The notes below the pieces were generated by a model. The model did no database searches and was not told the origin of the DNA. It saw nothing but the letters and a program-made list of their open reading frames with translations. DNA of 64,000 bases from the sequence record OZ470804.1; one strand, written 5' to 3'. Positions 30,307-51,683 of this stretch are shown here, in pieces. The translations under genes were made by a program, and so were the position numbers. Position 1 is the stretch's first letter. Each line of letters opens with the position of its first letter. The DNA comes from a phage.

Positions 30307-31188
30307 ATGAAAACATCTATCCGTGTTATAATTCATTCACCGACAAAAGGGTCTCATGAAGAAGAGTTTAACATCATCCAGTTCCCTTCTGGTGAGATTG
30401 GTGGACACTTTTCACAAGAGCTTGTTGACTTTACTGCTCACGCAGCATCATCCATCAACAATGTGATTATGATTGTAAAAGGCTATGATAAAGACACATT
30501 GTTTGCTGTGGCACTTGCTAAAGAAGCAATTGATGATTTAGTTCCTCATGAATATGCCTTAAAGACTGTCATCTTTTACTACTTACCAAATGCACGATAT
30601 GACCGTCACATGTTTAAAGGTGATGCAGCAGCTTTGAAGGTTTTTGCTAAACAGGTTAATGCAATGGGGTTTGGTGCGGTCTGTGCAGTTGACCCTCACA
30701 GTTATGTGCCAGATAACCTGTTTAACTGCTTCCAAAGTATTCCTCAAAATGAAATTGCAGTCCACTATGCAAATGACCCACTGGTTGATTACTTAGTAGC
30801 CCCAGATGCAGGTGCTTCTAAGAAGATTGCAGAGACTGCTAAAGAGGTGGATAAACCATACATCACAATGTCTAAAGTACGTAACCTTCAGACTGGTGAA
30901 ATTACTGGTATGCGAATCCTTGATGATGTGGATTTGACAGATAAAACTGTCATGATTCTTGATGATATCTGTGATGGTGGTCGAACCTTCATAGAAGCAG
31001 CTAAACATCTTCGTGAAGCAGGTGCAAAACGTGTGGAACTCTATGTAACACATGGTATCTTCTCTAAAGGTGTTGAAAACCTTCTTGACAATGGTATTGA
31101 CCACATCTACACTACAAACTCTTTAGGGGAAGCTAAAGACCGTGGTTTAACACATTATGGTCAAGTTACTGTAGCAAACCTTGATTAA
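30307..31188 (+). CDS. ribose-phosphate pyrophosphokinase (Prs) family protein; candidate ADPR-pyrophosphate synthetase
   Basis: PRPP-binding loop VMILDDICDGGRT and HGIFS flexible-loop motif. Confidence 0.7.
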   Translation: MKTSIRVIIHSPTKGSHEEEFNIIQFPSGEIGGHFSQELVDFTAHAASSINNVIMIVKGYDKDTLFAVALAKEAIDDLVPHEYALKTVIFYYLPNARYDRHMFKGDAAALKVFAKQVNAMGFGAVCAVDPHSYVPDNLFNCFQSIPQNEIAVHYANDPLVDYLVAPDAGASKKIAETAKEVDKPYITMSKVRNLQTGEITGMRILDDVDLTDKTVMILDDICDGGRTFIEAAKHLREAGAKRVELYVTHGIFSKGVENLLDNGIDHIYTTNSLGEAKDRGLTHYGQVTVANLD

Positions 31189-31197
31189 AACTTTATA

Positions 31198-31218
31198 GGG
31201 GGCTTTTAAGCCCCATTT
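31198..31218 (+). terminator. intrinsic terminator / attenuating hairpin
   Basis: GGGGCTTTTAAGCCCC hairpin followed by ATTTT. Confidence 0.5.
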
Positions 31219-31235
31219 TGAGAGAGATTAAAAAG

Positions 31236-33017
31236 ATGACTAAATCACTTTATGCAGTGCCAGCAGGTTTAAACGCAGATGCTTACAAATCTGGTCACAT
31301 TTACCAGTACCCTAGTGCAACAGAGTACTTAATGTTTAACCTGACACCACGTAGTGACAAATGGTTTAACAGTCCCTTAGCAATTGATGGTGTAGTTGCT
31401 TTTGGTATTCAACGTTTTGTTAAAGATTACTTGATAGACCACTGGAACGCCACCTTTTTTGAACGTGACAAAAAAGAAGCAATTGATGAAATCTTAGAAG
31501 TCATGAACGGTGTTCTGGGTAAAGATGCTATTGGTCGAGAGCATTGGGAAGCACTTCATGACTTGGGTTATCTACCAGTTGAAGTATACGCTGTAGAAGA
31601 AGGAACAGTTGTCCCTATGCGTGTACCAATGGTTGTCTTCCAGAACACTGTTTCAGGTTTCCATTGGGTAGCGGGGTATCTGGAAGATGCTTTCTCTGCT
31701 GAGATTTGGAAGGCTTGTACCATTGCAACTATTGCATTGCACTACAAACGTATCTGTAAGAAGTGGGCTGACCTTACTTGTGACAACGACTTGCATTTAC
31801 CTTATCAGTGCCATGACTTTGCTATGCGTGGTATGTCCGGCTTTACTGATGACGCATTTAACGCTGTAGGCCACTTAACCAGCTTTAAAGGGACTGATAG
31901 CTTCCCTGCTGTATATACAGCTAAACGCATCTACGGTCAGTCCTACCCAATCTCTGATATTGGTAGCTCTGTACCAGCCACTGAACACTCTGTAATGTGT
32001 GCAAACATTGCTTGGGAAGGTGGTAATGAGTTGATTGAAGAAGAAAGACGCTTCAAAGGTGAGTTACAAACCTTCCGTCGCTTCTTAACAGAAACTTACC
32101 CAACTGGTATTGCAAGTGTTGTTTCAGATACTTATAATTTCTGGAGAACTGTATCAGTCATATTGCCAGAACTCCGTAAAGAGATTATGGAACGAAATGG
32201 CAAACTGGTAATTCGTCCTGATTCTGGAGACCCTGTACATATTGTCACAGGTTATAAAGCAATTCACTTAGAGTGTGCTAAAAAGGCTTATTATGAACAC
32301 CTAAGCAAGCTGGAAGCCAGCGACACAATGTTGAATGCTGTTCTGAACATGAAGCTTGAAAACATCAATTATGGTATTGCTGGATGGCTACTGTTAGAAG
32401 GCTATGAGATGGTTGTTGACAGAGAAGACTTTGAAGTTGCTGATACAGTGATGTTGAAAAATGCTTATATGGTTGGTTCTGCAAACGTTGTAACACGTCC
32501 TGTAGCAGAGATTGATGGAGCTATTAAGACCCTGTATAACATCTTTGGAGGGACTATTAACTCTAAAGGTTTTAAGGTACTGGATGAGCACATTGGCCTT
32601 ATTTATGGCGACTCTATCACGTTGGAACGTGCAAATGAAATACTGAAGCGTTTGTATGAAATGGGTTTTGCAAGCTCTAACGTAGTGTTTGGTGTAGGTT
32701 CTTACACTTACCAGTACATGACTCGTGACACCTTTGCATTTGCTGTCAAAGCAACCCTTGCAAGCATTGGTGGTAAAGAGATTATGCTTGCAAAAGACCC
32801 TAAAACAGATAGTGGTGTTAAGAAGTCTGCTTTTGGTGGTGTAGCACCTATGTGGGATGGTGAAAATCTGAAAGCTGTAGATGGCTATGGGTTCCAGAGC
32901 TTTGCAGATGCACTTGAACATCCAGCTTGTGCTTTACGTCTAGTCTTTAGCGACTCTGAGCAGTTCGGCTACACAACTCTTGGTGATATTCGAAATAATA
33001 TTGACAAGCAGCTTTAA
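31236..33017 (+). CDS. nicotinamide phosphoribosyltransferase (Nampt) family protein; candidate Namat
   Basis: ADAYKSGHIYQYP, SSVPATEHSVM and IRPDSGDP motifs match Nampt; about 100 aa longer than typical Nampt. Confidence 0.7.
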   Translation: MTKSLYAVPAGLNADAYKSGHIYQYPSATEYLMFNLTPRSDKWFNSPLAIDGVVAFGIQRFVKDYLIDHWNATFFERDKKEAIDEILEVMNGVLGKDAIGREHWEALHDLGYLPVEVYAVEEGTVVPMRVPMVVFQNTVSGFHWVAGYLEDAFSAEIWKACTIATIALHYKRICKKWADLTCDNDLHLPYQCHDFAMRGMSGFTDDAFNAVGHLTSFKGTDSFPAVYTAKRIYGQSYPISDIGSSVPATEHSVMCANIAWEGGNELIEEERRFKGELQTFRRFLTETYPTGIASVVSDTYNFWRTVSVILPELRKEIMERNGKLVIRPDSGDPVHIVTGYKAIHLECAKKAYYEHLSKLEASDTMLNAVLNMKLENINYGIAGWLLLEGYEMVVDREDFEVADTVMLKNAYMVGSANVVTRPVAEIDGAIKTLYNIFGGTINSKGFKVLDEHIGLIYGDSITLERANEILKRLYEMGFASSNVVFGVGSYTYQYMTRDTFAFAVKATLASIGGKEIMLAKDPKTDSGVKKSAFGGVAPMWDGENLKAVDGYGFQSFADALEHPACALRLVFSDSEQFGYTTLGDIRNNIDKQL

Positions 33018-37248: not shown

Positions 37249-37797
37249 ATGAAGAAATTGATTCTAGGTTTGTGCTTAATGTTTACAGCACACTTATCTT
37301 ATGCAGTTGACTGCCCAGAGCTATCAATTAGCCAAAAAGTAAACATGTTAAAAGCTTACCAGTATGGTGAGAATAACATGGGTAAAGGTTGGGGTATCAC
37401 TCTAGCTGCTATAGCCTTACAAGAGTCAGAGTTAGGTCTGAAGGTAGAGAATAAAAAGACCCATGACTATGGTATCTTCCAGAATCACTTGAAGACTGTT
37501 GTAAAGCGTAACAAAATTAGTCCTAATGTGGCTAAAAAGAAACTCTTAAAAGACTTTGACTATGCTGCGAAGGAAACTCACAAAGAGCTTGAGTTTTGGA
37601 CAAAGGTGCATGGTCAGCCAAAGTCAAAGAAGACTTTACAAAAAGTTTTAGCATCATATAATGCTGGGTATTCGTACAGAATCCCTAAAGCTAAGAAATA
37701 TTCTCAAGATGTCTATAACAACATGAAAGTTATTGCTCAATGTGAATTTGCAACAAACATTTCTAAGGTAAACCATGAAAAAATTAAAAAAGTCTGA
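37249..37797 (+). CDS. secreted protein, possible lytic transglycosylase
   Basis: signal peptide MKKLILGLCLMFTAHLSYA; ALQESELG..YGIFQ resembles the SLT catalytic motif. Confidence 0.4.
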   Translation: MKKLILGLCLMFTAHLSYAVDCPELSISQKVNMLKAYQYGENNMGKGWGITLAAIALQESELGLKVENKKTHDYGIFQNHLKTVVKRNKISPNVAKKKLLKDFDYAAKETHKELEFWTKVHGQPKSKKTLQKVLASYNAGYSYRIPKAKKYSQDVYNNMKVIAQCEFATNISKVNHEKIKKV

Positions 37798-38470
37798 TGA
37801 AGTACTGTGTCATGCTTACGACTTACATCCTCATGAGTTAGGTCTTGATTCCTGTGTATGGACTCCAGAACAGTGTAGGGATTTTGAAGACACTGCAAGA
37901 GAAGTTGTATGTTCACTCGAAGAGTTCCACACATCAGAACCAATTGTGAATGTTGTAGATAAAGAGACTGGACAAACTATAGGTGTAAGTCGTGATAGCT
38001 TAGTCATAGTCAATAAAGACCTTGTAGAAAAAGGGAATCTCATCTTAGCAGATATTGATGGTGTTCTTACAAATTTTAATCACGAAGATTGTTCAACGGA
38101 ATTGACTGACGGTTCATTCTCGCAGTACACTAATCTTCTTGACTCTGTAAGAGCAAAACCAACGTATGTTTTCAATATCATTGATGCAATTGCTAATCAT
38201 GCTGCTGTTGGACTCTTGACAGCGAGAGGTGAATCTCAGAGAATACCTACTGAGATGTTTTTAAGGCATAACACAGAGCATGACTACATGCTTTTTATGC
38301 GTGGTTTTGGGACTAACTCTATAAGCGCAGAAAGTTTGAAAGTGAGGATGATTCAGTCTTGCATTCTGCCTTACTTTAATATAGTATGTTTTATAGAAGA
38401 CACAGAGAAGAATGTGCAGAAGGTGAACAGAATCCTTCCACACATTAAAACCATGTTAGTTAAACATTGA
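37775..38470 (+). CDS. hypothetical protein
   Basis: 231 aa ORF. Confidence 0.5.
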   Translation: MKKLKKSDEVLCHAYDLHPHELGLDSCVWTPEQCRDFEDTAREVVCSLEEFHTSEPIVNVVDKETGQTIGVSRDSLVIVNKDLVEKGNLILADIDGVLTNFNHEDCSTELTDGSFSQYTNLLDSVRAKPTYVFNIIDAIANHAAVGLLTARGESQRIPTEMFLRHNTEHDYMLFMRGFGTNSISAESLKVRMIQSCILPYFNIVCFIEDTEKNVQKVNRILPHIKTMLVKH

Positions 38471-40317: not shown

Positions 40318-40518
40318 ATGGCTGACTTCTGCAAAGACTGTTCTATCGAAATGTTTGGACGTGATACAGGTGACTTAAAAGGTCTTATCACTGAAGATGA
40401 CTTTAAAGCTGGCTATGCAATGCCAGTAATCTGTGAAGGCTGTGGGTGCATCTGGGTAGACCATGAAGGGCAACGTGTAAAACCTTCAGAAGATAAAGAA
40501 TCTTGGGAGAGATGTTAA
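40318..40518 (+). CDS. Cys-rich small protein
   Basis: CKDC..CEGCGC pairs, 66 aa. Confidence 0.45.
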   Translation: MADFCKDCSIEMFGRDTGDLKGLITEDDFKAGYAMPVICEGCGCIWVDHEGQRVKPSEDKESWERC

Positions 40519-41304
40519 ATGGGTATTGTAAAAATCATCAAAGGCGATATCTTTGACGCCTTTGATAAAGGTAAGTTTGATATCATTGGGCATGGTTGCA
40601 ACTGTATGAATTTCATGGGTGCAGGTATTGCAGCAACTATTTCTAAGCGTTATCCAAAAGTGTATGATACTGACACAGAAGTTTACCTGTTTGCAGGTGG
40701 CATCCGTCACAAACCCTGTGAGAATTTACTAGGTAATTTCTCTGTAGCACGCTTAAAACAAGGTCGTATAGCTAACCTTTACACCCAACTTCATACTGGT
40801 AAAGATGCCCGATACAGTGCTTTAGAGTCATCTTTGAAACAACTTAACAGATACTGTGAAGTTAACCAGTTGAAGAAAGTCGGTCTGCCTATGATTGGTG
40901 CAGGTATCGGTGGACTTGACCCTCAAGCTGTCACAGTTATCATCAATCAGGTTATGAAGAGCGTAGATGTTTATCTGTATGTCTATGAAGCAAAAATGTA
41001 TAATGAGTTACACTCAGGTTGGAAGAACTACTGTGAACCAGAATACTTTGCAGGTGTAGCAGTGTTCATAGATAACGCAGTTACCCTCTTCAGACGAAGA
41101 AAAGGTAAGATACATCAAAGTAACCCTCCGGTTGAAAAGATGTCTCTAAGTAACGCTCTAGTTACCCACCTGTCAAAGAGCAATCACAGAATTGCAGTAA
41201 CATTTGGAAGTGATGCAGATGCTTATATCTATGCAAGAACTGATGAGGATATCGAGACGGTTTTCTCTTCACCAGAGCTTACCTTCTTAGACGCAAAGAA
41301 CTAA
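40519..41304 (+). CDS. macro-domain (ADP-ribose binding/processing) protein
   Basis: IKGDIF..FDIIGHGCNCMNFMGAGIAATISKRYP and VGLPMIGAGIGGLDP match macro-domain signature; about 110 aa C-terminal extension. Confidence 0.65.
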   Translation: MGIVKIIKGDIFDAFDKGKFDIIGHGCNCMNFMGAGIAATISKRYPKVYDTDTEVYLFAGGIRHKPCENLLGNFSVARLKQGRIANLYTQLHTGKDARYSALESSLKQLNRYCEVNQLKKVGLPMIGAGIGGLDPQAVTVIINQVMKSVDVYLYVYEAKMYNELHSGWKNYCEPEYFAGVAVFIDNAVTLFRRRKGKIHQSNPPVEKMSLSNALVTHLSKSNHRIAVTFGSDADAYIYARTDEDIETVFSSPELTFLDAKN

Positions 41305-41369
41305 GAAACTTCGTAGTATATTCACAATAGACTAAGCCTTTCTTATCTGGTAAATTTTTCAGGTAAGGA

Positions 41370-41600
41370 GGGCTTTTTCATTTCAGAATTGTGCAGGTAT
41401 ATTTCTATAGAGAAATCTGTAGAGGAAATTTTGAACTCCAAAGAGAAAATTCATTTTCAAACTGTGCAGATAATCTCCAAAGGACTTTTTCATTTTCAAA
41501 ACGTGCAGACCCCGCTCAGGTCGGGCAAGAAAAATCATTTTAGAATTGTGCAGGTAGGTGGGTGCAGGTGTGGATGTCGCCATTTCTCACAAGGCTACCA
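41370..41600. repeat. iteron-like array (4-5 copies of TCATTTTCARAAYTGTGCAGRT)
   Basis: copies near 41380, 41450, 41495, 41540 plus GGGTGCAGGTG; about 45-55 bp spacing. Confidence 0.6.
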
Positions 41601-41733
41601 CATCTGAAAAGAAAAGTCAACAGAAAAATTTGTAGCGGATTGAAAAATAATTCTTGATTGTAGTTCTGTTTTGTGGTAGTCGCGTGCGCCCGTTTCATTA
41701 CAGTTTTTTGCAAAAATATTTTTAAAATTCCTA

Positions 41734-41762
41734 TTGACTCTCTGACTATGGTTATTTAGTAT
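41734..41762 (+). promoter_or_regulatory. sigma70-type promoter
   Basis: TTGACT-17 bp-TAGTAT in AT-rich region upstream of first small gene. Confidence 0.55.
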
Positions 41763-41812
41763 TTGCATCAGACAGGCAAACAAGCCTACTTCCTAAACTG
41801 GAGATTTAAAAA

Positions 41813-43996: not shown

Positions 43997-44401
43997 ATGG
44001 CTATTAATAATCGTGAGTTATCAATCTTAAAAGCACGTTTGACCGTTAACCGGATTAATGTTATTACGTCGTCAGCACCTGATGAGACATTGCACAACAT
44101 TATCGGGAAGATTCAAAGTGTTATCTTAGACGTTGAAAGCGTAAAAAACTCATTGGCTGACGTTGCAGCAGGTATCACGCTAGACGGTGCACAATATGAA
44201 ATGGCTGACATGTTAGGCAAATCTAAGGTAATGAATAAAGAGCTTGATTTAAAAATGTTCCGCTTTGCCGTGAAAGTGTGGCTATCTGTCGAGTATGACG
44301 CAAATTTTGCAATCGCTGACTTTTTCGCAACATGGTTGCAACGTAATTTGACAAATCACGATTTTCGTGATGTCTGTGATGCAATTTATGCAGAACTCTA
44401 A
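43997..44401 (+). CDS. small hypothetical protein (array gene 7)
   Basis: 134 aa ORF. Confidence 0.55.
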   Translation: MAINNRELSILKARLTVNRINVITSSAPDETLHNIIGKIQSVILDVESVKNSLADVAAGITLDGAQYEMADMLGKSKVMNKELDLKMFRFAVKVWLSVEYDANFAIADFFATWLQRNLTNHDFRDVCDAIYAEL

Positions 44402-44410
44402 AAAATTTTG

Positions 44411-44502
44411 TTGACACTGGTTTTTAGATAGATTAAATTACACATCAACGGGGAGGGAATGACCTTCCCCACTAAATAAAGTCCTAAACTGGAGATTCTA
44501 AA
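44411..44502 (+). promoter_or_regulatory. leader cassette type B, copy 2
   Basis: TTGACA-17 bp-TAAATT then GGGGAGGGAATGACCTTCCCC. Confidence 0.65.
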
Positions 44503-44700
44503 ATGGCTATTATTAACGGTTTAACCATTGAAACTACACACATCAAAGATATCAAAGTTGGCGATATAGTCCTTTCCCACGGCGTAGAAAAAACTGTCAC
44601 TGCAAAGGATATCAAAGAGGATTCTTTCATGGGTAGAACTCTCTTCGGTGATTCTTATTGCTTAGGTTATCTTGCAGTTTTAAAAGTTGTCAAAAATTAA
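44503..44700 (+). CDS. small hypothetical protein (array gene 8)
   Basis: 65 aa ORF. Confidence 0.5.
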   Translation: MAIINGLTIETTHIKDIKVGDIVLSHGVEKTVTAKDIKEDSFMGRTLFGDSYCLGYLAVLKVVKN

Positions 44701-44706
44701 GTAATA

Positions 44707-44792
44707 AAGTACTTTACAAGGGGCTTAAAAAGTTGGTATCTTAATCCCCAGATAAAGAGCTTTACACAGTCCTTAAACTAGGAGATTAAAAA
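44707..44792 (+). promoter_or_regulatory. leader cassette type A, copy 5
   Basis: GGGGCTTAAAAAGTTGGTATCTTAATCCCC variant. Confidence 0.6.
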
Positions 44793-45041
44793 ATGATGAA
44801 TTATTTAAACATTCCCGACACTTGCAAACTGTTAACGCAACCAGAAAATTTAGGTAAGGCTTACCTATACCATATGCCAAATAATACGGCAAAAACTTAT
44901 AGTTACACTGTTAACCGATTCACGGCATACGCTGCAAAAAACGGTTACAAGGTTGTTACTCAAAAAGTAACACTGTTTACAACTGTTGAGGAACTCCCCA
45001 CGGTTGCAGTTAAACTGATTTTTTCAAAGAAAACTAAATAG
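44793..45041 (+). CDS. small hypothetical protein (array gene 9)
   Basis: 82 aa ORF. Confidence 0.5.
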   Translation: MMNYLNIPDTCKLLTQPENLGKAYLYHMPNNTAKTYSYTVNRFTAYAAKNGYKVVTQKVTLFTTVEELPTVAVKLIFSKKTK

Positions 45042-45126
45042 ATTTCTTTACACGGGGTTATCAAGCTGATAAGATAGCCCCAGATAAAGAAATTTATCAA
45101 ATAAATCCTAAACTGGAGATTCAAAA
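45041..45126 (+). promoter_or_regulatory. leader cassette type A, copy 6 (diverged)
   Basis: GGGGTTATC..GATAGCCCC stem keeps pairing despite sequence change. Confidence 0.55.
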
Positions 45127-45669
45127 ATGAAATGTTTTCACGGTACTACTCAAGAAAACTTTATCAACCTGATTAATAACGGTGATAAACCATCAGGCGC
45201 ATGGAATTGTTCTGATATGGATGGGAATTTTTACGTTTACCCAGAGAATAAAATCTATGGCGACGATGAGGAAGAAATAATCTTTGAAGGTATCCAGCAA
45301 GCTCTGGGCAATGCCACTATCACCGCAGCTTTTCAGATGAAAACTCAAAACATTGTTATCTTGGAACTTGAGATTCCAGAAGATGAGCTAAACGATGATT
45401 ATTCTTGTGATAATATGTCGAGCGTGGCAAGTTTTACAGAATATTTCGATTTAAATTGGATTAAAAAGGTTTACATCACTGAATTTAATGCTATGTATTC
45501 GCCTTTTTGTCTTCCTTCACTGGATAACCCAAATATGAATTATCTTGATGAGACATTAGAACTACTTGCTAAAAGTGTTCAACAATCGGACAGTATTCAG
45601 GTTTTTTGTGACATCATGGACACACTAACGGAAAACATCGCAGAAGAGGATTTAAAGAGCTTTTTCTAA
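45127..45669 (+). CDS. hypothetical protein (array gene 10)
   Basis: 180 aa acidic ORF followed by terminator. Confidence 0.55.
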   Translation: MKCFHGTTQENFINLINNGDKPSGAWNCSDMDGNFYVYPENKIYGDDEEEIIFEGIQQALGNATITAAFQMKTQNIVILELEIPEDELNDDYSCDNMSSVASFTEYFDLNWIKKVYITEFNAMYSPFCLPSLDNPNMNYLDETLELLAKSVQQSDSIQVFCDIMDTLTENIAEEDLKSFF

Positions 45670-45701
45670 AAACCTATGCAATCACATTATAAACACTATT
45701 C

Positions 45702-45721
45702 AGCCCCTTGTAGGGGCTTTT
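45702..45721 (+). terminator. intrinsic terminator
   Basis: AGCCCC-TTGT-AGGGGCT followed by TTT. Confidence 0.55.
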
Positions 45722-45735
45722 AAGAGGCTTAAATC

Positions 45736-45969
45736 ATGCTTACAACCGTTTATCTTATCCTTTCTATATGTAATGGTCATTCATGCGATTTTAAAGGGCT
45801 TGAAGAGTTTACAGGAAGTAAAGAAAATGCTATTCAAGTTTGCCAGATAGCGAGACAAGACTATCCCGCAAGTGATGATATTCAGTGTTACTTTAAGACA
45901 GAAGATGAAGACGGTATCTATTTTGACAGTGTAGATGGTCAGTATGAAATTATCATTGAAAAAGACTAG
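45736..45969 (+). CDS. small hypothetical protein (array gene 11)
   Basis: 77 aa ORF. Confidence 0.5.
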   Translation: MLTTVYLILSICNGHSCDFKGLEEFTGSKENAIQVCQIARQDYPASDDIQCYFKTEDEDGIYFDSVDGQYEIIIEKD

Positions 45970-46058
45970 ACAAGCCTGATAAAAATCTGTAAATTGTCAA
46001 TCAACGGGGAGGGGATGACCTTCCCCACTAAATAAAATCCTAAACTGGAGATTCAAAA
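45967..46058 (+). promoter_or_regulatory. leader cassette type B, copy 3
   Basis: TAGACA-17 bp-TAAATT then GGGGAGGGGATGACCTTCCCC. Confidence 0.65.
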
Positions 46059-46400
46059 ATGGCTTATGTAACCGTAATTACCGATAAAGCTGGCGCATCT
46101 TGGTCAACTCAAGTAAGCGATAAGATGTCACCTATGCAGTGCCTAAAATACTTTGAGCAATGGAACAAAGGCGAGGATGTCAGCCCCTTTCAAGTAATGC
46201 AGATTATCCATACAGATAACGAAGGGAAGAAAACTGTTTTGAATAGTGAGTACTACGCAACCAGATTTGAAACGAGATGTAAAGCAATGAAGCTCTTGCG
46301 TGAGTCTGGTTATTCTCATATTGCGGCAATAATCTGGGATGACTTGCTAAAAAGTCAGCGTATCAGCTATGTAAAACCTGAAAAAATATTCATCAGTTAA
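46059..46400 (+). CDS. small hypothetical protein (array gene 12)
   Basis: 113 aa ORF. Confidence 0.55.
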   Translation: MAYVTVITDKAGASWSTQVSDKMSPMQCLKYFEQWNKGEDVSPFQVMQIIHTDNEGKKTVLNSEYYATRFETRCKAMKLLRESGYSHIAAIIWDDLLKSQRISYVKPEKIFIS

Positions 46401-46432
46401 TCAATAACTTACAAAAAACTTTTAAAAAAGTG

Positions 46433-46461
46433 TTGACAATGCCCCTTGACATTGGTAACTT
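46433..46461 (+). promoter_or_regulatory. putative promoter with tandem TTGACA boxes
   Basis: AAAAAGTGTTGACAATGCCCCTTGACATTGGTAACTT. Confidence 0.4.
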
Positions 46462-46529
46462 TGTTCGAGGGGGTTTATCTAAAAGGGATTAACTTAAAAG
46501 ATTCTTTATAGATAAACTTAAAAAATTGC

Positions 46530-46622
46530 TTGCAATCAGATATCAAAACAAGTAAATTACTAATCAACGGGAGGCGATAACCTCCCCACTAAGTAAAGTC
46601 CTTAAACTAGGAGATTCAAAAA
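46530..46622 (+). promoter_or_regulatory. leader cassette type B, copy 4
   Basis: TTGCAA-17 bp-TAAATT then GGGAGGCGATAACCTCCCC variant hairpin. Confidence 0.6.
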
Positions 46623-47153
46623 ATGAACAAGTTCAAAGCTATCAACTTCATTCGTTCAAATAGTGTTATGTCAAAGCCTGTTAAAGACACCTATGAATTT
46701 CGTTGTAATGGTGTACATTTTGCAACAATCACCAAATCAGAAAACGGGGCTTATTACGTCCATCGTCGTAATGTTTCTACTGTTGTAGTTTCTCACTTTA
46801 TGCAAGCTGTCGCGGAACTTCTCCCGATGTTTTTAGGTCTTTACTTAGATGAGTGTAAAAACGTTTACAATCACGTTAAAAACCTTTTAAACAGTTATAA
46901 AATGGCTTACGAACGCTCTATCAAGTCCTTAAACAAGTTCTATAAAGCCCCTGCAAATACTGTATCAATGGCCTATGGCGTAGGTGGCTGGACTTTTAAC
47001 CTTTCCCTAGTGGAAGAAATCGAGCTTTATGATTTACGTCCTAATGGTTACTCTAAGACACTGGGAGAAGGTTTAACGTTCAATATCAAAAACTTAGAAA
47101 AAACTTTAAAAGATATTGAAAAAGATATTGACGAAACAATCAAAAACCTGTAA
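46623..47153 (+). CDS. hypothetical protein (array gene 13)
   Basis: 176 aa ORF. Confidence 0.55.
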   Translation: MNKFKAINFIRSNSVMSKPVKDTYEFRCNGVHFATITKSENGAYYVHRRNVSTVVVSHFMQAVAELLPMFLGLYLDECKNVYNHVKNLLNSYKMAYERSIKSLNKFYKAPANTVSMAYGVGGWTFNLSLVEEIELYDLRPNGYSKTLGEGLTFNIKNLEKTLKDIEKDIDETIKNL

Positions 47154-47243
47154 TTTGTCAATCAACGGGGAGGGAATGACCTCCCCCCACTACATAAAAC
47201 CCTTAAACTAGGAGATTCAAAAATGGTGATAAGAAAGAAGTAG
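47128..47243 (+). promoter_or_regulatory. leader cassette type B, copy 5 (orphan, drives only a 6-codon ORF)
   Basis: TTGACG-17 bp-TAATTT then hairpin then RBS then ATGGTGATAAGAAAGAAGTAG. Confidence 0.55.
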
Positions 47244-47245
47244 TG

Positions 47246-48110
47246 ACCATGTTAATAGCTTGTTAAAAAGATTAGACACTTGTTAGGAACTTGTTAATTA
47301 TCTTAACAAAATAACTCTTAAAAATTAACTTGTTAGCTCTTGTTAGTCATCTGTTAAGATTCTGTAAAGCCTATTCAGCACTTGTTAAGAAACTGTTAAA
47401 GCCTTGTTAGTTCTGTTAAGAATCTGTTAAGACCTTTGAAGAGTTGTTAAGAAGATGTGAGAGCTGTTAAGAGATTGTTAAGGATATTTTAAAATTTTGC
47501 AAAGGGGATGTTACAGGGATGTTAAGGGCTACCAAGCAGATATACATCTTCTACAGATATTTTTGAGTTCCTTCAAAGACCCTAAAAAATGACTTGATAG
47601 TCCTATTTTATAAAAATTTTAAAATTCTGAATAATTACCTAGACAGTCTTTTAAAAATACAGGTAGAAACAGGCTTATAAGATACCTTGTTAGTACCGTG
47701 TTAGACCTTGTGAGATAAGGTCTGTGAAGATATTCCTGTTAAGTTTGTTAAAACAGTCTATATAGAGGCTTAGTAATACCTAGTGAACACCTATAGAGAG
47801 TCACATAGCTTACATAGAGATTAAGAGGTGTATAGGAGCTTCTAAGAGTGTGTAGAGAGATGGTTAAGATGATTGTATAGGTTGTTTAGAAGGCTTGTTA
47901 GAAGAGTGTTTAGATGGCTATTTAGAAGGGCTATACAGAGGGCTATTAAGACCACTAGATAGTTACTAAGATACTATATAGTACTATATAACTATATAGA
48001 GAGTAAGATTAAGAAGGTTGTTAAGAAGGATAGATATTTTATTCACATATGATGGTGACCCAGAGGTTGGGACAACCGATAAAATTTTATAAAAAATATA
48101 AATTTCGTAA
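47246..48110. repeat. non-coding block of degenerate ~11 bp periodic repeats (YTGTTAAG / TTGTTAG / TATAG units)
   Basis: more than 20 copies of CTGTTAAG-like units between 47270 and 47480, further TAGAG/TTAAG/TATAG units to 48050; no ORF longer than 60 codons. Confidence 0.7.
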
Positions 48111-48137
48111 ATTTTACTCAATAAAAAGCCCCCGATT
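48110..48137 (-). terminator. intrinsic terminator (minus strand)
   Basis: AGCCCCC..GGAGGCT hairpin with plus-strand A-run, downstream of ORF 48158-48751. Confidence 0.45.
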
Positions 48138-48157
48138 AAGGAGGCTCTTAAGATATT

Positions 48158-48751
48158 TTAAATCAGTGTTTCCAGAACTGTTTTTAATGATGACTTGGTT
48201 GTCTGATAAAAATGAGTAAATCCATTGTTGTTATCAAATACCTGCATCATGATATCATCTCCCTTGATTGGGTACACTCGGATATCATAGTGAAAACCAT
48301 TAAAGACACAAGAACCACTACAGAATGCTCTAAAGTCATCCACTGAGATATACTCTTCATGACCTGTGATTTTTATACAAACACCTTTACTCGGTCTCTT
48401 AGGGTTGATATCTTCCATCACAGACATACTCTGTCCACCAAGAGATACCATAGTGACTACTTTACGGTTCTTCTGTCTAAAGTACATCTTAACTTTCTGT
48501 AAAGTGTCTTCATAGAACGGATAAGACTTCTCTACAAAGATTCCTTCAAGTGGCTCTTTACCATTTTTAACTTCTCTGTAACCACGTACTGCAAAAACAA
48601 TCTGTTTTAATCTGTCAAGACTTTCTTCAGAGAGTGCTTCTTGAGCATCACTCCAGTCAAGGACTAGATAGTTACCTTCAACATCTTTTAAGTTATCTTT
48701 TTCCATAACTATCACACCATTATCGTAAAACTTGGTAAGCTGGAACTGCAA
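48158..48751 (-). CDS. hypothetical protein
   Basis: 197 aa ORF. Confidence 0.5.
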   Translation of the reverse strand: MQFQLTKFYDNGVIVMEKDNLKDVEGNYLVLDWSDAQEALSEESLDRLKQIVFAVRGYREVKNGKEPLEGIFVEKSYPFYEDTLQKVKMYFRQKNRKVVTMVSLGGQSMSVMEDINPKRPSKGVCIKITGHEEYISVDDFRAFCSGSCVFNGFHYDIRVYPIKGDDIMMQVFDNNNGFTHFYQTTKSSLKTVLETLI

Positions 48752-49184
48752 ACTTGTTGCCGTTGTTCTTAATGAGGTCTTCTTCTGTTACTAAGAATGT
48801 AATCCCACACAAGTGTGTGTAGTGGCTATCATACTCAAATATTTTAAGTAAGTATTTACCGTCGTGATAAACAGATTCTACTACACCTTTTGCAACAATC
48901 TTTCCAGTCTTGAAATCTTTAAGAGGGTATACATTACCAACTTTAGGGACTGTTTTCATCTCAGGTTCTTTTAGCTTCTCACCAGCTTCTACATCACCTA
49001 GTAAGTGAGAACTTTCAAACGCTACATATTGCATATAAGCCTCTGAGCATTCCCAGATAAAACAATGTACAAGAACCTTAGCAGCATGTCTTGAACAATT
49101 CAACTTATCACAAATTTCTTTATACATTTCATCTTTAGTTGAGTTGTCAAGCATTGCTCTTTGCACTACTTCTTTAATTTTCAT
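48720..49184 (-). CDS. hypothetical protein
   Basis: 154 aa ORF. Confidence 0.5.
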   Translation of the reverse strand: MKIKEVVQRAMLDNSTKDEMYKEICDKLNCSRHAAKVLVHCFIWECSEAYMQYVAFESSHLLGDVEAGEKLKEPEMKTVPKVGNVYPLKDFKTGKIVAKGVVESVYHDGKYLLKIFEYDSHYTHLCGITFLVTEEDLIKNNGNKFAVPAYQVLR

Positions 49185-49602
49185 AAGCTCTCCGAATAAC
49201 CCTATTAAGCATCTCTAAAGTCAGCTTTCCAGATTCTAAATGTGGCATAACAAGCTTTAAAGCTTTTTCAACATCATGCACAACATCTATTATACCTTCT
49301 GCATAGGCTTCTACAAGGATATCTTTTACATTTTGTGATTTACCTTTTTGTGGTATCACTAGATGCATATCAAACTCATTTGCTTGAGGATGGTTCTTAC
49401 CACGCCAGAAACCGTCCTTATCAAAGCTTATAAAGTTATCCTCATTAAAATTAATACCACAAACCTTAAACTTATCTAAAACTATGCAGTTGAGAGGGTA
49501 ATCATCACTTGCATCATTCATTCCAAGAAACTTAACAGTAGCTATATACCTCTGTGTCTTTGCATCTACAACGTCAAGCTCTTTACCTATAAGCTCTTTC
49601 AT
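49174..49602 (-). CDS. hypothetical protein
   Basis: 142 aa ORF. Confidence 0.5.
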   Translation of the reverse strand: MKELIGKELDVVDAKTQRYIATVKFLGMNDASDDYPLNCIVLDKFKVCGINFNEDNFISFDKDGFWRGKNHPQANEFDMHLVIPQKGKSQNVKDILVEAYAEGIIDVVHDVEKALKLVMPHLESGKLTLEMLNRVIRRAYEN

Positions 49603-49654
49603 TTCGCTACCTTCTAAGTTCCTACAAAGGGGCTATCAAGTAACCCCTAAGTTA

Positions 49655-49879
49655 TTACTCAGACTTTTCAGTCTTCTTATCGGATTTCTTACTAGTCTTC
49701 TTCTCAGCTTTCTGTTCAGGTTCCTTCTCAGAAGTTGCCTTGATAACCATGTCAAGAAGCTCTGATAAGTCACTCTTCAGCAGAGTAACAGGCTGCTCAT
49801 TGTAGAAGTTTTTGTCAAGATAAACTTTGAACTCTTCAATAGATGGAAATCCAAAAATTGGTACAGGTGTCTTAATCAT
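49655..49879 (-). CDS. hypothetical protein with lysine-rich C-terminus
   Basis: 74 aa ORF. Confidence 0.4.
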   Translation of the reverse strand: MIKTPVPIFGFPSIEEFKVYLDKNFYNEQPVTLLKSDLSELLDMVIKATSEKEPEQKAEKKTSKKSDKKTEKSE

Positions 49880-49955
49880 TACTTAGTCTCTCCATAGGCA
49901 TCTTTCAAGATTGCCTTGTTAATCATTTCAGCGATTGCAAAACGAACACATACAG

Positions 49956-50489
49956 CTATAATTGTAGGTTGCATTCTTTACTTACCTCTTCAAGTTTAAC
50001 CTCAGAATCCTTAAGTCGTTTCTTATGAACTCTGAATCTTAGTAGTGAGATGATGATACCAGCTAAAGGAACAGCATACAAGTACCAAACATCATATACC
50101 TTTGCGGTAATCTGTGTAATGGTCAAGTCTTGAGCTATGGAGCTGATTGCTGATACGGCTAGTAATGTTGCTAAGAAGAAAACCAGTATCATAGCAATAT
50201 TCAGACAACCTCTGGCATGGTATTCATGCTTAATGCACTTATTCTTCTCTTCAACAACCCTGTTGTAGTCATTTGTAAAGTCTCTGTAGAAAGCTTTCAG
50301 GTATTCTTGAGTGTAGCCTTCAAAGCAACCTGTACCGTACCAATAATCACCACCAAAGTGTGCTATGATACCGGTATCTCCATTTGGTTTGGTTACTCTC
50401 AAAGAAGTATGATGACGCGTATCCTGATAATCTATCTTATATCTTTCTTCGTAAATCATTTTCCAACCCCTCTCAATCGTTTGTTCCAC
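49956..50489 (-). CDS. membrane protein
   Basis: two predicted TM helices in C-terminal half. Confidence 0.5.
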   Translation of the reverse strand: MEQTIERGWKMIYEERYKIDYQDTRHHTSLRVTKPNGDTGIIAHFGGDYWYGTGCFEGYTQEYLKAFYRDFTNDYNRVVEEKNKCIKHEYHARGCLNIAMILVFFLATLLAVSAISSIAQDLTITQITAKVYDVWYLYAVPLAGIIISLLRFRVHKKRLKDSEVKLEEVSKECNLQL

Positions 50490-50674
50490 TCAAGGTCAAC
50501 AAGCCTTTGCAGGACTTTCCCTCTAGGTGTTACACCTTTTAAATCTGCATCGTAGCAATGGTAAAAGTCACCTTCAGCGTGTTTACCATAGCATTTTCTG
50601 ATATTCTGACTTCTACGATATTGTTCTAATAGGGACAGCTTGTAGTAATCTTCAACTGTAGTTAGCTTTTTCAT
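50456..50674 (-). CDS. hypothetical protein
   Basis: 72 aa ORF. Confidence 0.4.
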   Translation of the reverse strand: MKKLTTVEDYYKLSLLEQYRRSQNIRKCYGKHAEGDFYHCYDADLKGVTPRGKVLQRLVDLEWNKRLRGVGK

Positions 50675-50757
50675 TCTTTCACCACGAATCCTCTTAAGAA
50701 ACTAAAAAGGGAACTACCTCTCGATAGCTCCCATCATAGTTAACATTGTATACTCGG

Positions 50758-51339
50758 TCAAGAGTATTTTTTAGGCAGTAATGCGCTACGTTTGTTACTC
50801 TCTTCACTCAACAGTGCGATGAAGTCATCACCTTTGCCTTTCCACGGGCTGAATGAAGGGATATGCTCACGAATAGCTTCAATCACTGTCTTAAGTGCTG
50901 TATTTTTCATCCACCAATCAGAATCTGCTAATGCCACTACGTAGTATCCACCTTCATCAGTCAGAATAGGTTCTGAGATACATGGTGAAATCACAGTGGT
51001 AATGACTGAACCATTGTTCATGTAGTATGTACGCTTAATAACTTTTTCAAGAAGCTTGTGAAGGTCACCAAACAGTGTTACAAGCTCTTTGTGGTCAATG
51101 TCTTTTTCGAGATTTGCTCGATACTTCAAAAGTGCAGCATCAACTTCTCTGTCATTAAACTTGAAGTACTGAACTTCCTCAACAAGACAAACACTGATGT
51201 TGTTGACATTCATAGTCAACTTGCAAACTTTTGCAGGAGAATTGATATTTGGTTGAAAAAGTGCAATACACCCTTCGATGTTTCCAAAATGTTGTACTAA
51301 TGTCACTTGTGGAGTGATACTCTGTTGCTCTTCGGACAT
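50758..51339 (-). CDS. hypothetical protein
   Basis: 193 aa ORF. Confidence 0.5.
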   Translation of the reverse strand: MSEEQQSITPQVTLVQHFGNIEGCIALFQPNINSPAKVCKLTMNVNNISVCLVEEVQYFKFNDREVDAALLKYRANLEKDIDHKELVTLFGDLHKLLEKVIKRTYYMNNGSVITTVISPCISEPILTDEGGYYVVALADSDWWMKNTALKTVIEAIREHIPSFSPWKGKGDDFIALLSEESNKRSALLPKKYS

Positions 51340-51683
51340 TACAGTTTCCTCATTAAATACTTTTTAAGTTGTGTGTTAGGTTTCTCAAAAACTTCTATAG
51401 AAGATATCTTGACAGATTCACCACGCATACCTGTATGTTTGAATATATAGTACTCTAACATCCCTATATACTTTGCTGGTAAGTCATGCTTGACATACAC
51501 CGTTACAGAATCTTCAAATTCAACAACCTTTGTACCATCTTTGTAGTTAAACTCTTTAGGATGGTTATAGTTGTCAATATCGTACATTAAAAAGAGTCTT
51601 TTCCGTTGCATATCAAGCTTATTGGTTAAAGACTCTTTGATGTCTGAGAAGTTTTTATACACTGTGACATGGAGCTTACTCAT
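51339..51683 (-). CDS. hypothetical protein
   Basis: 114 aa ORF. Confidence 0.5.
   Translation of the reverse strand: MSKLHVTVYKNFSDIKESLTNKLDMQRKRLFLMYDIDNYNHPKEFNYKDGTKVVEFEDSVTVYVKHDLPAKYIGMLEYYIFKHTGMRGESVKISSIEVFEKPNTQLKKYLMRKL

Follow-up and report, generated by a model that had tools for sequence, protein, structure and literature searches.

A Felixounavirus macrodomain protein resembling the counter-defence protein AdfM carries an additional, lineage-specific C-terminal domain

RESULTS

An AdfM-like macrodomain joined to an extra domain

We analyzed a 64,000-nt stretch of phage DNA (OZ470804.1; hereafter, the window), which is from a Felixounavirus, and found that its sole macro open reading frame (ORF) encodes a protein in which an ALC1-like macrodomain is followed by a folded C-terminal domain (CTD). 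Judged from its sequence, the macrodomain is the single-copy counterpart of T4 Tk.4, also named AdfM. We favor, with slightly better than even confidence, a most likely function as an early, AdfM-like eraser of DarT2-type DNA ADP-ribosylation that would act by a Gln-type mechanism. The gene is already catalogued in hundreds of genomes and therefore is not new in itself; the new part is the architecture, an AdfM-like macrodomain with an extra CTD, within a recently recognized kind of counter-defence protein rather than a new kind of system.

The gene is complete (40519..41304, plus strand), running from an ATG at 40519 to a stop codon that ends at 41304 and specifying a 261-aa product that contains all of the motifs quoted in the original prediction (GDIF, IIGHGCNCMNFMGAGIA, YP, and GLPMIGAGIGG). 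A Shine-Dalgarno-like GGGAGAG lies 8 to 15 nt 5' of the ATG, which directly abuts the TAA of a preceding 66-aa ORF. That ORF (40318-40518, plus strand; phrog_2210) is Cys-rich, with a zinc-ribbon-like CxxC ... CxxCxC pattern, and FelixO1 and SUSP1, unlike the Erwinia phage vEam_W_25, have the same junction between its stop codon and the macro ATG. The 6 kb around the macro gene share 92 to 93% DNA identity with over 200 records in addition to REP6, VpaE1, and FelixO1.

The gene matches phrog_335 (E 1e-113) and is the equivalent of FelixO1 ORF13 (Felix01p025), which is annotated "phosphatase" with the remark "17.5 kDa protein in tk-vs intergenic region," that is, T4 Tk.4. Hundreds of genomes label the gene "putative phosphatase," "macro domain protein," or "O-acetyl-ADP-ribose deacetylase." The widespread "phosphatase" label, whose source is Poa1p, is probably misleading. 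The "putative phosphatase" g95 of phage Bas63 is probably an orthologue, an assignment based on the same annotation and on a gene order within two of our own count.

The macrodomain is of the ALC1-like class

An N-terminal macro domain had been proposed from the sequence, and five approaches agree on it: Pfam, the PADLOC DarG model, a family profile, AlphaFold2, and Foldseek place a macrodomain at residues 1-156 (40519..40986, plus strand). The Pfam Macro family (PF01661) matches residues 25-141 with 30.1 bits (cutoff, 22 bits; E 5e-7) and covers profile positions 2-117 of 118, and the PADLOC DarG model matches residues 7-162 (E 4e-15). The AlphaFold2 model of the full-length protein, built from a 28-sequence alignment, has a pLDDT of 89.2 and a pTM of 0.88, and comparison of this model with the PDB by Foldseek bore out the predicted macro fold: 241 matches were obtained at E<=0.001, the best 50 of which are all macrodomains or macro-fold proteins. 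The best PDB matches are TARG1, DarG, and Poa1p (probability 1.00; TM 0.75-0.85 on target), with the DarG structures 5M3E, 5M31, and 5M3I at TM 0.78-0.80 on target.

The family profile points to the same group among PDB sequences, with E values of 4e-17 for TARG1, 9e-17 for SCO6735, 4e-16 to 7e-16 for BT1257, 1e-15 for Poa1p, and 4.5e-15 for Mycobacterium tuberculosis DarG. Members of the TARG1/DarG/SCO6735/Poa1p class score within about two orders of magnitude of one another, apart from the weaker Thermus aquaticus DarG, and viral nsP3 macrodomains and TTHA0132 rank below TARG1, SCO6735, BT1257, Poa1p, and DarG. The macrodomain belongs to the ALC1-like class (TARG1/DarG/SCO6735/Poa1p), not to the MacroD, PARG, or viral nsP3 type. 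MacroD, Af1521, and YmdB, which had been suggested as the comparison set, are not its nearest class.

A glutamine at the position of the catalytic lysine

The predicted ligand-binding elements are found in three segments on the plus strand. An HGCNC motif that includes Asn28 (40600-40602) leads into MGAGIA (residues 33-38), the first glycine-rich ADP-ribose-binding loop (40591..40632; alignments, PMC9411070 and PMC13309987); an NLYTQ motif ends in Gln90 (40786-40788; motif 40774..40788; alignments and PMC9411070); and IGAGIGG (residues 126-132; 40894..40914) forms, by alignment, the second glycine-rich loop, predicted to bind the diphosphate. Asn28 and the whole of NLYTQ are invariant in the 28 aligned family members, as are M33, G36, and A38 of the first loop and G127 and G129 of the second, and G131 and G132 are invariant among 12 full-length homologues. 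At the His25 position of HGCNC, vEam_W_25 (Kolesnikvirus; locus L004, 2998-3780) has Gln.

Asn28 aligns with Asn27 of SCO6735, a residue described as conserved in DarG homologues (PMC9411070). Gln90 sits at the position of the catalytic Lys84 of TARG1 and matches Gln85 of SCO6735 and the Gln of T4 Tk.4, which also has NLYTQ; PhiKZ gp104 has Lys at this position in our alignment. Lys80 of T. aquaticus DarG, Lys84 of TARG1, and Gln85 of SCO6735 have been reported as equivalent, and the SCO6735 substitutions Q85A and N27S each abolish hydrolysis of thymidine-linked ADP-ribose on DNA (PMC9411070). SCO6735 also rescues cells from DarT (PMC9411070). The catalytic Lys is missing from the phage protein, yet inactivity does not follow, because the Gln-type SCO6735 cleaves ADP-ribosylated thymidine in DNA. 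These residues place the macrodomain in a Gln-type subgroup that has a documented DNA de-ADP-ribosylase, SCO6735.

The protein as a candidate eraser of DarT2 modification

Three functions had been offered for the protein, namely, recycling of ADP-ribose (ADPR), removal of ADP-ribosylation, and degradation of ADPR-derived immune signals. Homology to Tk.4/AdfM and the Asn/Gln site of SCO6735 favor removal, most likely in the form of reversal of DarT2-type DNA ADP-ribosylation. By BLASTP, Tk.4 shares 35% identity with residues 3-157 (E 6e-24), that is, over the whole macrodomain and including the HGCNC, NLYTQ, and IGAGIG motifs, at a level that does not guarantee the same substrate. Each phage record contains one matching place by tblastn, and Tk.4 is the sole macro gene of T4. 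Both genes lie in an early or accessory region, and FelixO1 has a homologue of the T4 neighbor vs.1. Within the window, the macro gene follows rIIA/rIIB and the gene for a PseT-like kinase in a region of early genes.

Of the T4 genes, tk.4 alone was found to be needed on a DarTG2 host, and its clean knockout sensitizes T4 to DarTG2, for which it was named adfM; the activity of T4 AdfM on DNA was deduced from genetics, not biochemistry (10.1101/2025.11.20.689424). The more distant PhiKZ gp104, likewise a phage-encoded DarG-like macrodomain, protects its phage and, in vitro, strips DarT2-modified DNA of ADP-ribose (PMC13309987). This biochemically tested AdfM is of the Lys type (N23/K78), only 25% identical to the phage protein (E 2e-5), and a stand-alone protein of 162 aa that is imported into the phage nucleus.

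From these likenesses we infer a mechanism in which the macrodomain would bind ADP-ribose that host DarT2-type toxins put on thymidine in single-stranded phage DNA and would hydrolyze the ribose-base bond. Asn28 would position Gln90, and Gln90 would in turn position the distal ribose for a water-mediated step such as that proposed for SCO6735, so that free ADP-ribose is released and the DNA can again be replicated. In this scheme, the CTD would pack against the macrodomain and is most likely a noncatalytic accessory module for recognition of a substrate or partner.

In the accessible part of the PhageMaP study, the fitness scores of Bas63 g95 are positive, i.e., the gene is nonessential, on hosts and defence strains alike across the conditions covered there, a pattern that fits a conditionally useful accessory gene. 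None of these hosts and strains carried DarTG, which is not among the 33 defence systems of the panel. Our literature search returned no published test of a FelixO1-type or other Andersonviridae phage against DarTG.

DarTG2 is found in pathogenic E. coli, and Felixounaviruses are predicted to resist it if the gene is an adfM; AdfM counter-defence would then reach a third major family beyond T4-like and PhiKZ-like phages. Resistance to host defences is of practical value in Felixounaviruses, which are in wide use for biocontrol and phage therapy involving Salmonella and E. coli.

Comparison with characterized macrodomain proteins

The phage protein combines traits that are distributed differently among its characterized relatives. 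It departs from the stand-alone format of about 155 to 162 aa that is typical of AdfM: Tk.4 is a 155-aa macrodomain, whereas the protein described here has 261 aa, including a folded 105-aa CTD. SCO6735 (PDB 5E3B) has in common with it the Gln at the catalytic-Lys position and the positioning Asn, but is encoded on a bacterial chromosome rather than by a phage, is under the control of DNA damage (PMC9411070), has a longer mobile loop bearing Lys89 and Lys94, and is without a CTD; its Val25 corresponds to Gly26 of the phage protein in our alignment numbering. DarG2 (PDB 5M31/5M3E/5M3I) is, like the phage protein, a two-domain protein with its macrodomain at the N terminus. It differs in having a catalytic Lys80 in place of Gln90, a C-terminal DarT-binding domain of a kind that we did not find in the phage protein, and a gene located beside darT, whereas the neighbors of the phage gene are small early genes and no darT is adjacent.

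TARG1/OARD1 (PDB 4J5R/4J5S) is the best match in both sequence and structure and also cleaves ADP-ribosylated thymidine in DNA (PMC9411070). It is a eukaryotic protein glycohydrolase with a Lys84/Asp125 dyad, which corresponds to Gln90/Gly131 in the phage protein. Poa1p (PDB 6LFQ/6LFR), a eukaryotic enzyme for a tRNA-splicing by-product, has the same fold and a similar H-x-CNC...GxGIA...YPK segment; it has Ser at the position of the invariant Gln, and its own Ser30 is not conserved in the phage protein.

The C-terminal domain is specific to its lineage and evolves rapidly

The CTD comprises residues 157-261 (40987..41301, plus strand) and is an orphan fold that our searches place in Andersonviridae only. 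The original prediction had described the C-terminal half as having no recognizable motif, and we found the same for these 105 residues: neither Pfam nor PADLOC gave a match. The domain is nevertheless confidently predicted to be beta-rich: its pLDDT is about 90 within the full-length model and 78.6 in a model of the CTD by itself, and both models have the same secondary structure, a helix at residues 158-166 followed by six beta-strands and a short helix. The high pTM of the full model (0.88) points to probable packing of the CTD against the macrodomain.

We searched widely for relatives of the CTD. A phmmer search of 1.84 billion representative sequences gave only the domain's own family, a profile search of 5.8 billion proteins gave only one P0009-like fragment and one fragment of the same family, and the SUSP2 orthologue was the only structural neighbor in BFVD. 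There is no CTD paralogue within the window, and the T4 neighbors of tk.4 (vs and tk.3-tk.1) have no similarity to it. The CTD is therefore a confidently folded domain without a relative in current sequence or structure libraries outside its own family. Other architectures occur among relatives; P0017 and P0019 have N-terminal extensions.

Within Andersonviridae, the two-domain length is kept in Felixounavirus, Suspvirus, Kolesnikvirus, and Arnovirus. By hhalign, the Felixounavirus/Suspvirus CTD is homologous to that of the P0009 group (97.6%) and probably to the tail of the Arnovirus group (82.6%), and it has no detectable relationship to the Erwinia Kolesnikvirus tail of the same length (0.5%). 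The vEam_W_25 orthologue (260 aa) keeps the macrodomain, at 42% identity, and has a tail unlike the Felix-type CTD, which suggests that the domain has been replaced or has diverged extremely. Sequence identity is lost about two to three times faster in the CTD than in the macrodomain, and in the same pairs dN/dS is 0.26-0.57 for the CTD versus 0.09-0.26 for the macrodomain; the CTD is thus under purifying selection. Its only invariant residues are P174, G179, and Y236, and the alignment contains no conserved polar CTD residues suggestive of catalysis.

We considered whether the domain might act on DNA by charge. A net charge of about -2 and a pI of about 6 led us to reject both an acidic mimic of single-stranded DNA and a basic DNA clamp, and the local RRRKGK hairpin is not conserved in distant members. 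The pI of the macrodomain is uninformative here, because T4 Tk.4 is acidic.

Tk.4 works without a CTD, so the eraser model leaves this domain unexplained. It is best described as a lineage-specific, fast-evolving accessory domain, and it may recognize a toxin or substrate. One specific, rather unlikely proposal is that the CTD is a toxin-recognition module that would bind and neutralize DarT2 or another host ADP-ribosyltransferase, thereby doing the job of the C-terminal domain of DarG with an unrelated fold. If so, Andersonviridae would carry a complete orphan antitoxin, made up of an enzymatic eraser and a stoichiometric inhibitor, and the specificity module would be swapped between host genera, the Kolesnikvirus tail being such a replacement. 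As a natural experiment, the CTD may reveal how an ADP-ribose eraser of a general type becomes adapted to individual toxins or substrates.

Alternative functions

Among the members of the ALC1-like class are TARG1, a protein glycohydrolase, and Poa1p, an ADPR-1''-phosphatase, and other substrates are possible because the class is versatile (ADPR-1''-phosphate, small molecules, and protein or RNA conjugates). Iyer, Burroughs, and Aravind proposed that most phage macrodomains destroy ADPR-derived immune signals or toxic metabolites. A hydrolase of small ADP-ribose derivatives of this kind, or a Poa1p-like ADPR-1''-phosphatase that clears by-products of RNA repair, is an improbable reading of the phage protein, for which several likenesses to Poa1p speak. 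Poa1p ranks near the top in both the structural and the profile comparison, and the N-terminal H-x-CNC...GxGIA...YPK motif is strikingly Poa1p-like, down to the His that corresponds to H23 of Poa1p; a PseT-like polynucleotide kinase is encoded 2 kb upstream. In addition, the metagenomic relative P0020 (339 aa) has a Tk.4-type macrodomain with NLYTQ fused to a C-terminal region with PF20274, which we take to be a cyclic-phosphate-processing receiver-like domain, and this fusion would be a hint that some members act on small molecules. However, the single-sequence match to Poa1p is confined to residues 5-55, and of the residues on which Poa1p activity depends according to PDB mutant entries (H23/S30), the former is present as H25, replaced by Gln in the Kolesnikvirus homologue, and the latter is Phe32; Poa1p, for its part, is without the invariant Gln. 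A KptA/Tpt1-type enzyme that would make Appr>p and couple the protein to RNA repair was not detected by Pfam in the ten ORFs tested at 43997-51683, and the literature hint of a KptA/Tpt1 likeness, for Bas63 gp107, is only of "slight structural homology." The closest characterized homologue, T4 Tk.4, has a known genetic phenotype only against DarTG2. We likewise regard it as unlikely that the protein reverses ADP-ribosylation of protein or RNA, rather than of DNA, by host toxin ADP-ribosyltransferases (ARTs) or a phage-encoded transferase. TARG1 is the best match, SCO6735 also hydrolyzes protein ADP-ribosylation (PMC9411070), and the macrodomain class is versatile (PMC9503650); against this, the TARG1 dyad is missing (Lys84 to Gln90 and Asp125 to Gly131), no ART was recognized among the tested ORFs of the window, and genetics is not known to point to such a role for any Tk.4-type protein.

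Two further readings are less probable still. The absence of the canonical catalytic Lys would suit a catalytically inactive ADP-ribose binder or sponge, or a stoichiometric toxin inhibitor, with the CTD giving the main function; SCO6735 inhibits DarT through interaction even when it is catalytically dead (PMC9411070), and the rapid evolution of the CTD is like that of binding interfaces in arms races. We consider this very unlikely, since the Gln-type site is competent in SCO6735 and the invariance of NLYTQ, Asn28, and parts of both glycine loops in all 28 homologues fits a conserved active site. Finally, the original prediction implied a functional tie to the NAD+ module of the window, in which the macro protein would feed NAD+ reconstitution (Adps plus Namat, 30307-33017) by freeing ADP-ribose from conjugates or derivatives. 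The two loci lie in one early genome arm at the predicted spacing of 7.5 kb (7502 bp), and macrodomain hydrolysis gives free ADPR, the NARP1 substrate (PMC13464706). They are not adjacent, however, rIIA, rIIB, and about ten other genes intervening, and their distributions differ: Tk.4-type macrodomains occur in 2818 phage records, mostly T4-like, and Adps-like genes in 1413. The host spread of the two sets of carriers is largely different with only partial overlap; 36 Vibrio harveyi phage records appear in each list and Pseudomonas and Salmonella phages in both, but Escherichia contributes 994 records for Tk.4-type macrodomains (the T4-like bulk) versus 178 for Adps-like genes, and many Adps carriers are Mycobacterium, Bacillus, Listeria, and Staphylococcus phages, which are not featured among macro carriers. 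Furthermore, Bas63 g79/g80 alone account for the counter-defence against Sir2-HerA, and the g95 scores in the accessible PhageMaP data already point to normal plating on NAD+-depleting defence strains. NAD+-depleting effectors already make ADPR in bulk. On gene order and distribution, we rejected functional coupling to NARP1 and consider the feeding role highly improbable. Erasure of DarT2-type DNA ADP-ribosylation is the reading that we retain as most likely.

Genomic surroundings

The NAD+ module is a NARP1-type pair on the plus strand, in which a Prs-like protein (293 aa, 30307-31188; 100% identical to its Escherichia phage EF202P1 counterpart) adjoins a NamPRT-like protein (599 aa, 31218-33017). 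The pair corresponds to Bas63 g79/g80, for which NAD+ reconstitution as a counter-defence against Sir2-HerA has been reported. It is followed by genes for rIIA, rIIB, a T4 Vs.1-like protein, the PseT-like kinase, spanins, and small proteins of unassigned function. At 37249-38470 (plus strand), the Vs.1-like gene, whose product has a weak, below-threshold match to SLT transglycosylases (E 9e-4), overlaps the start of the PseT-like kinase gene. The PhageMaP study reports Bas63 g84/g85 as co-essential against QatABCD; by gene count, these may be the Vs.1-like and PseT-like pair.

Downstream, a hairpin of 17 pairs followed by a T run (41334..41375, plus strand) lies 30 nt past the macro gene stop codon; it resembles an intrinsic terminator and probably ends the early transcription unit that includes the macro gene. 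The approximately 500-bp gap in which it is located (41305-41812) gave no Rfam family at E < 0.1. The same gap contains four direct copies of a 19-nt motif, TCATTTYMRAAYKGTGCAG, starting at 41378, 41451, 41490, and 41535 (41378-41553, plus strand), and the motif is found nowhere else in the window (0.03 expected). No exact match, the only kind searched for, was present at the Erwinia phage locus. The same array of four copies, identically spaced, follows the orthologous gene in FelixO1 (locus L001, 7989-8164) and SUSP1 (locus L003, 3867-4046), and the array could represent regulator or iteron-like binding sites or a promoter array. Further along the window, 22 tRNA genes are clustered at 58065-63555 (plus strand), an arrangement that FelixO1-type phages are expected to have.
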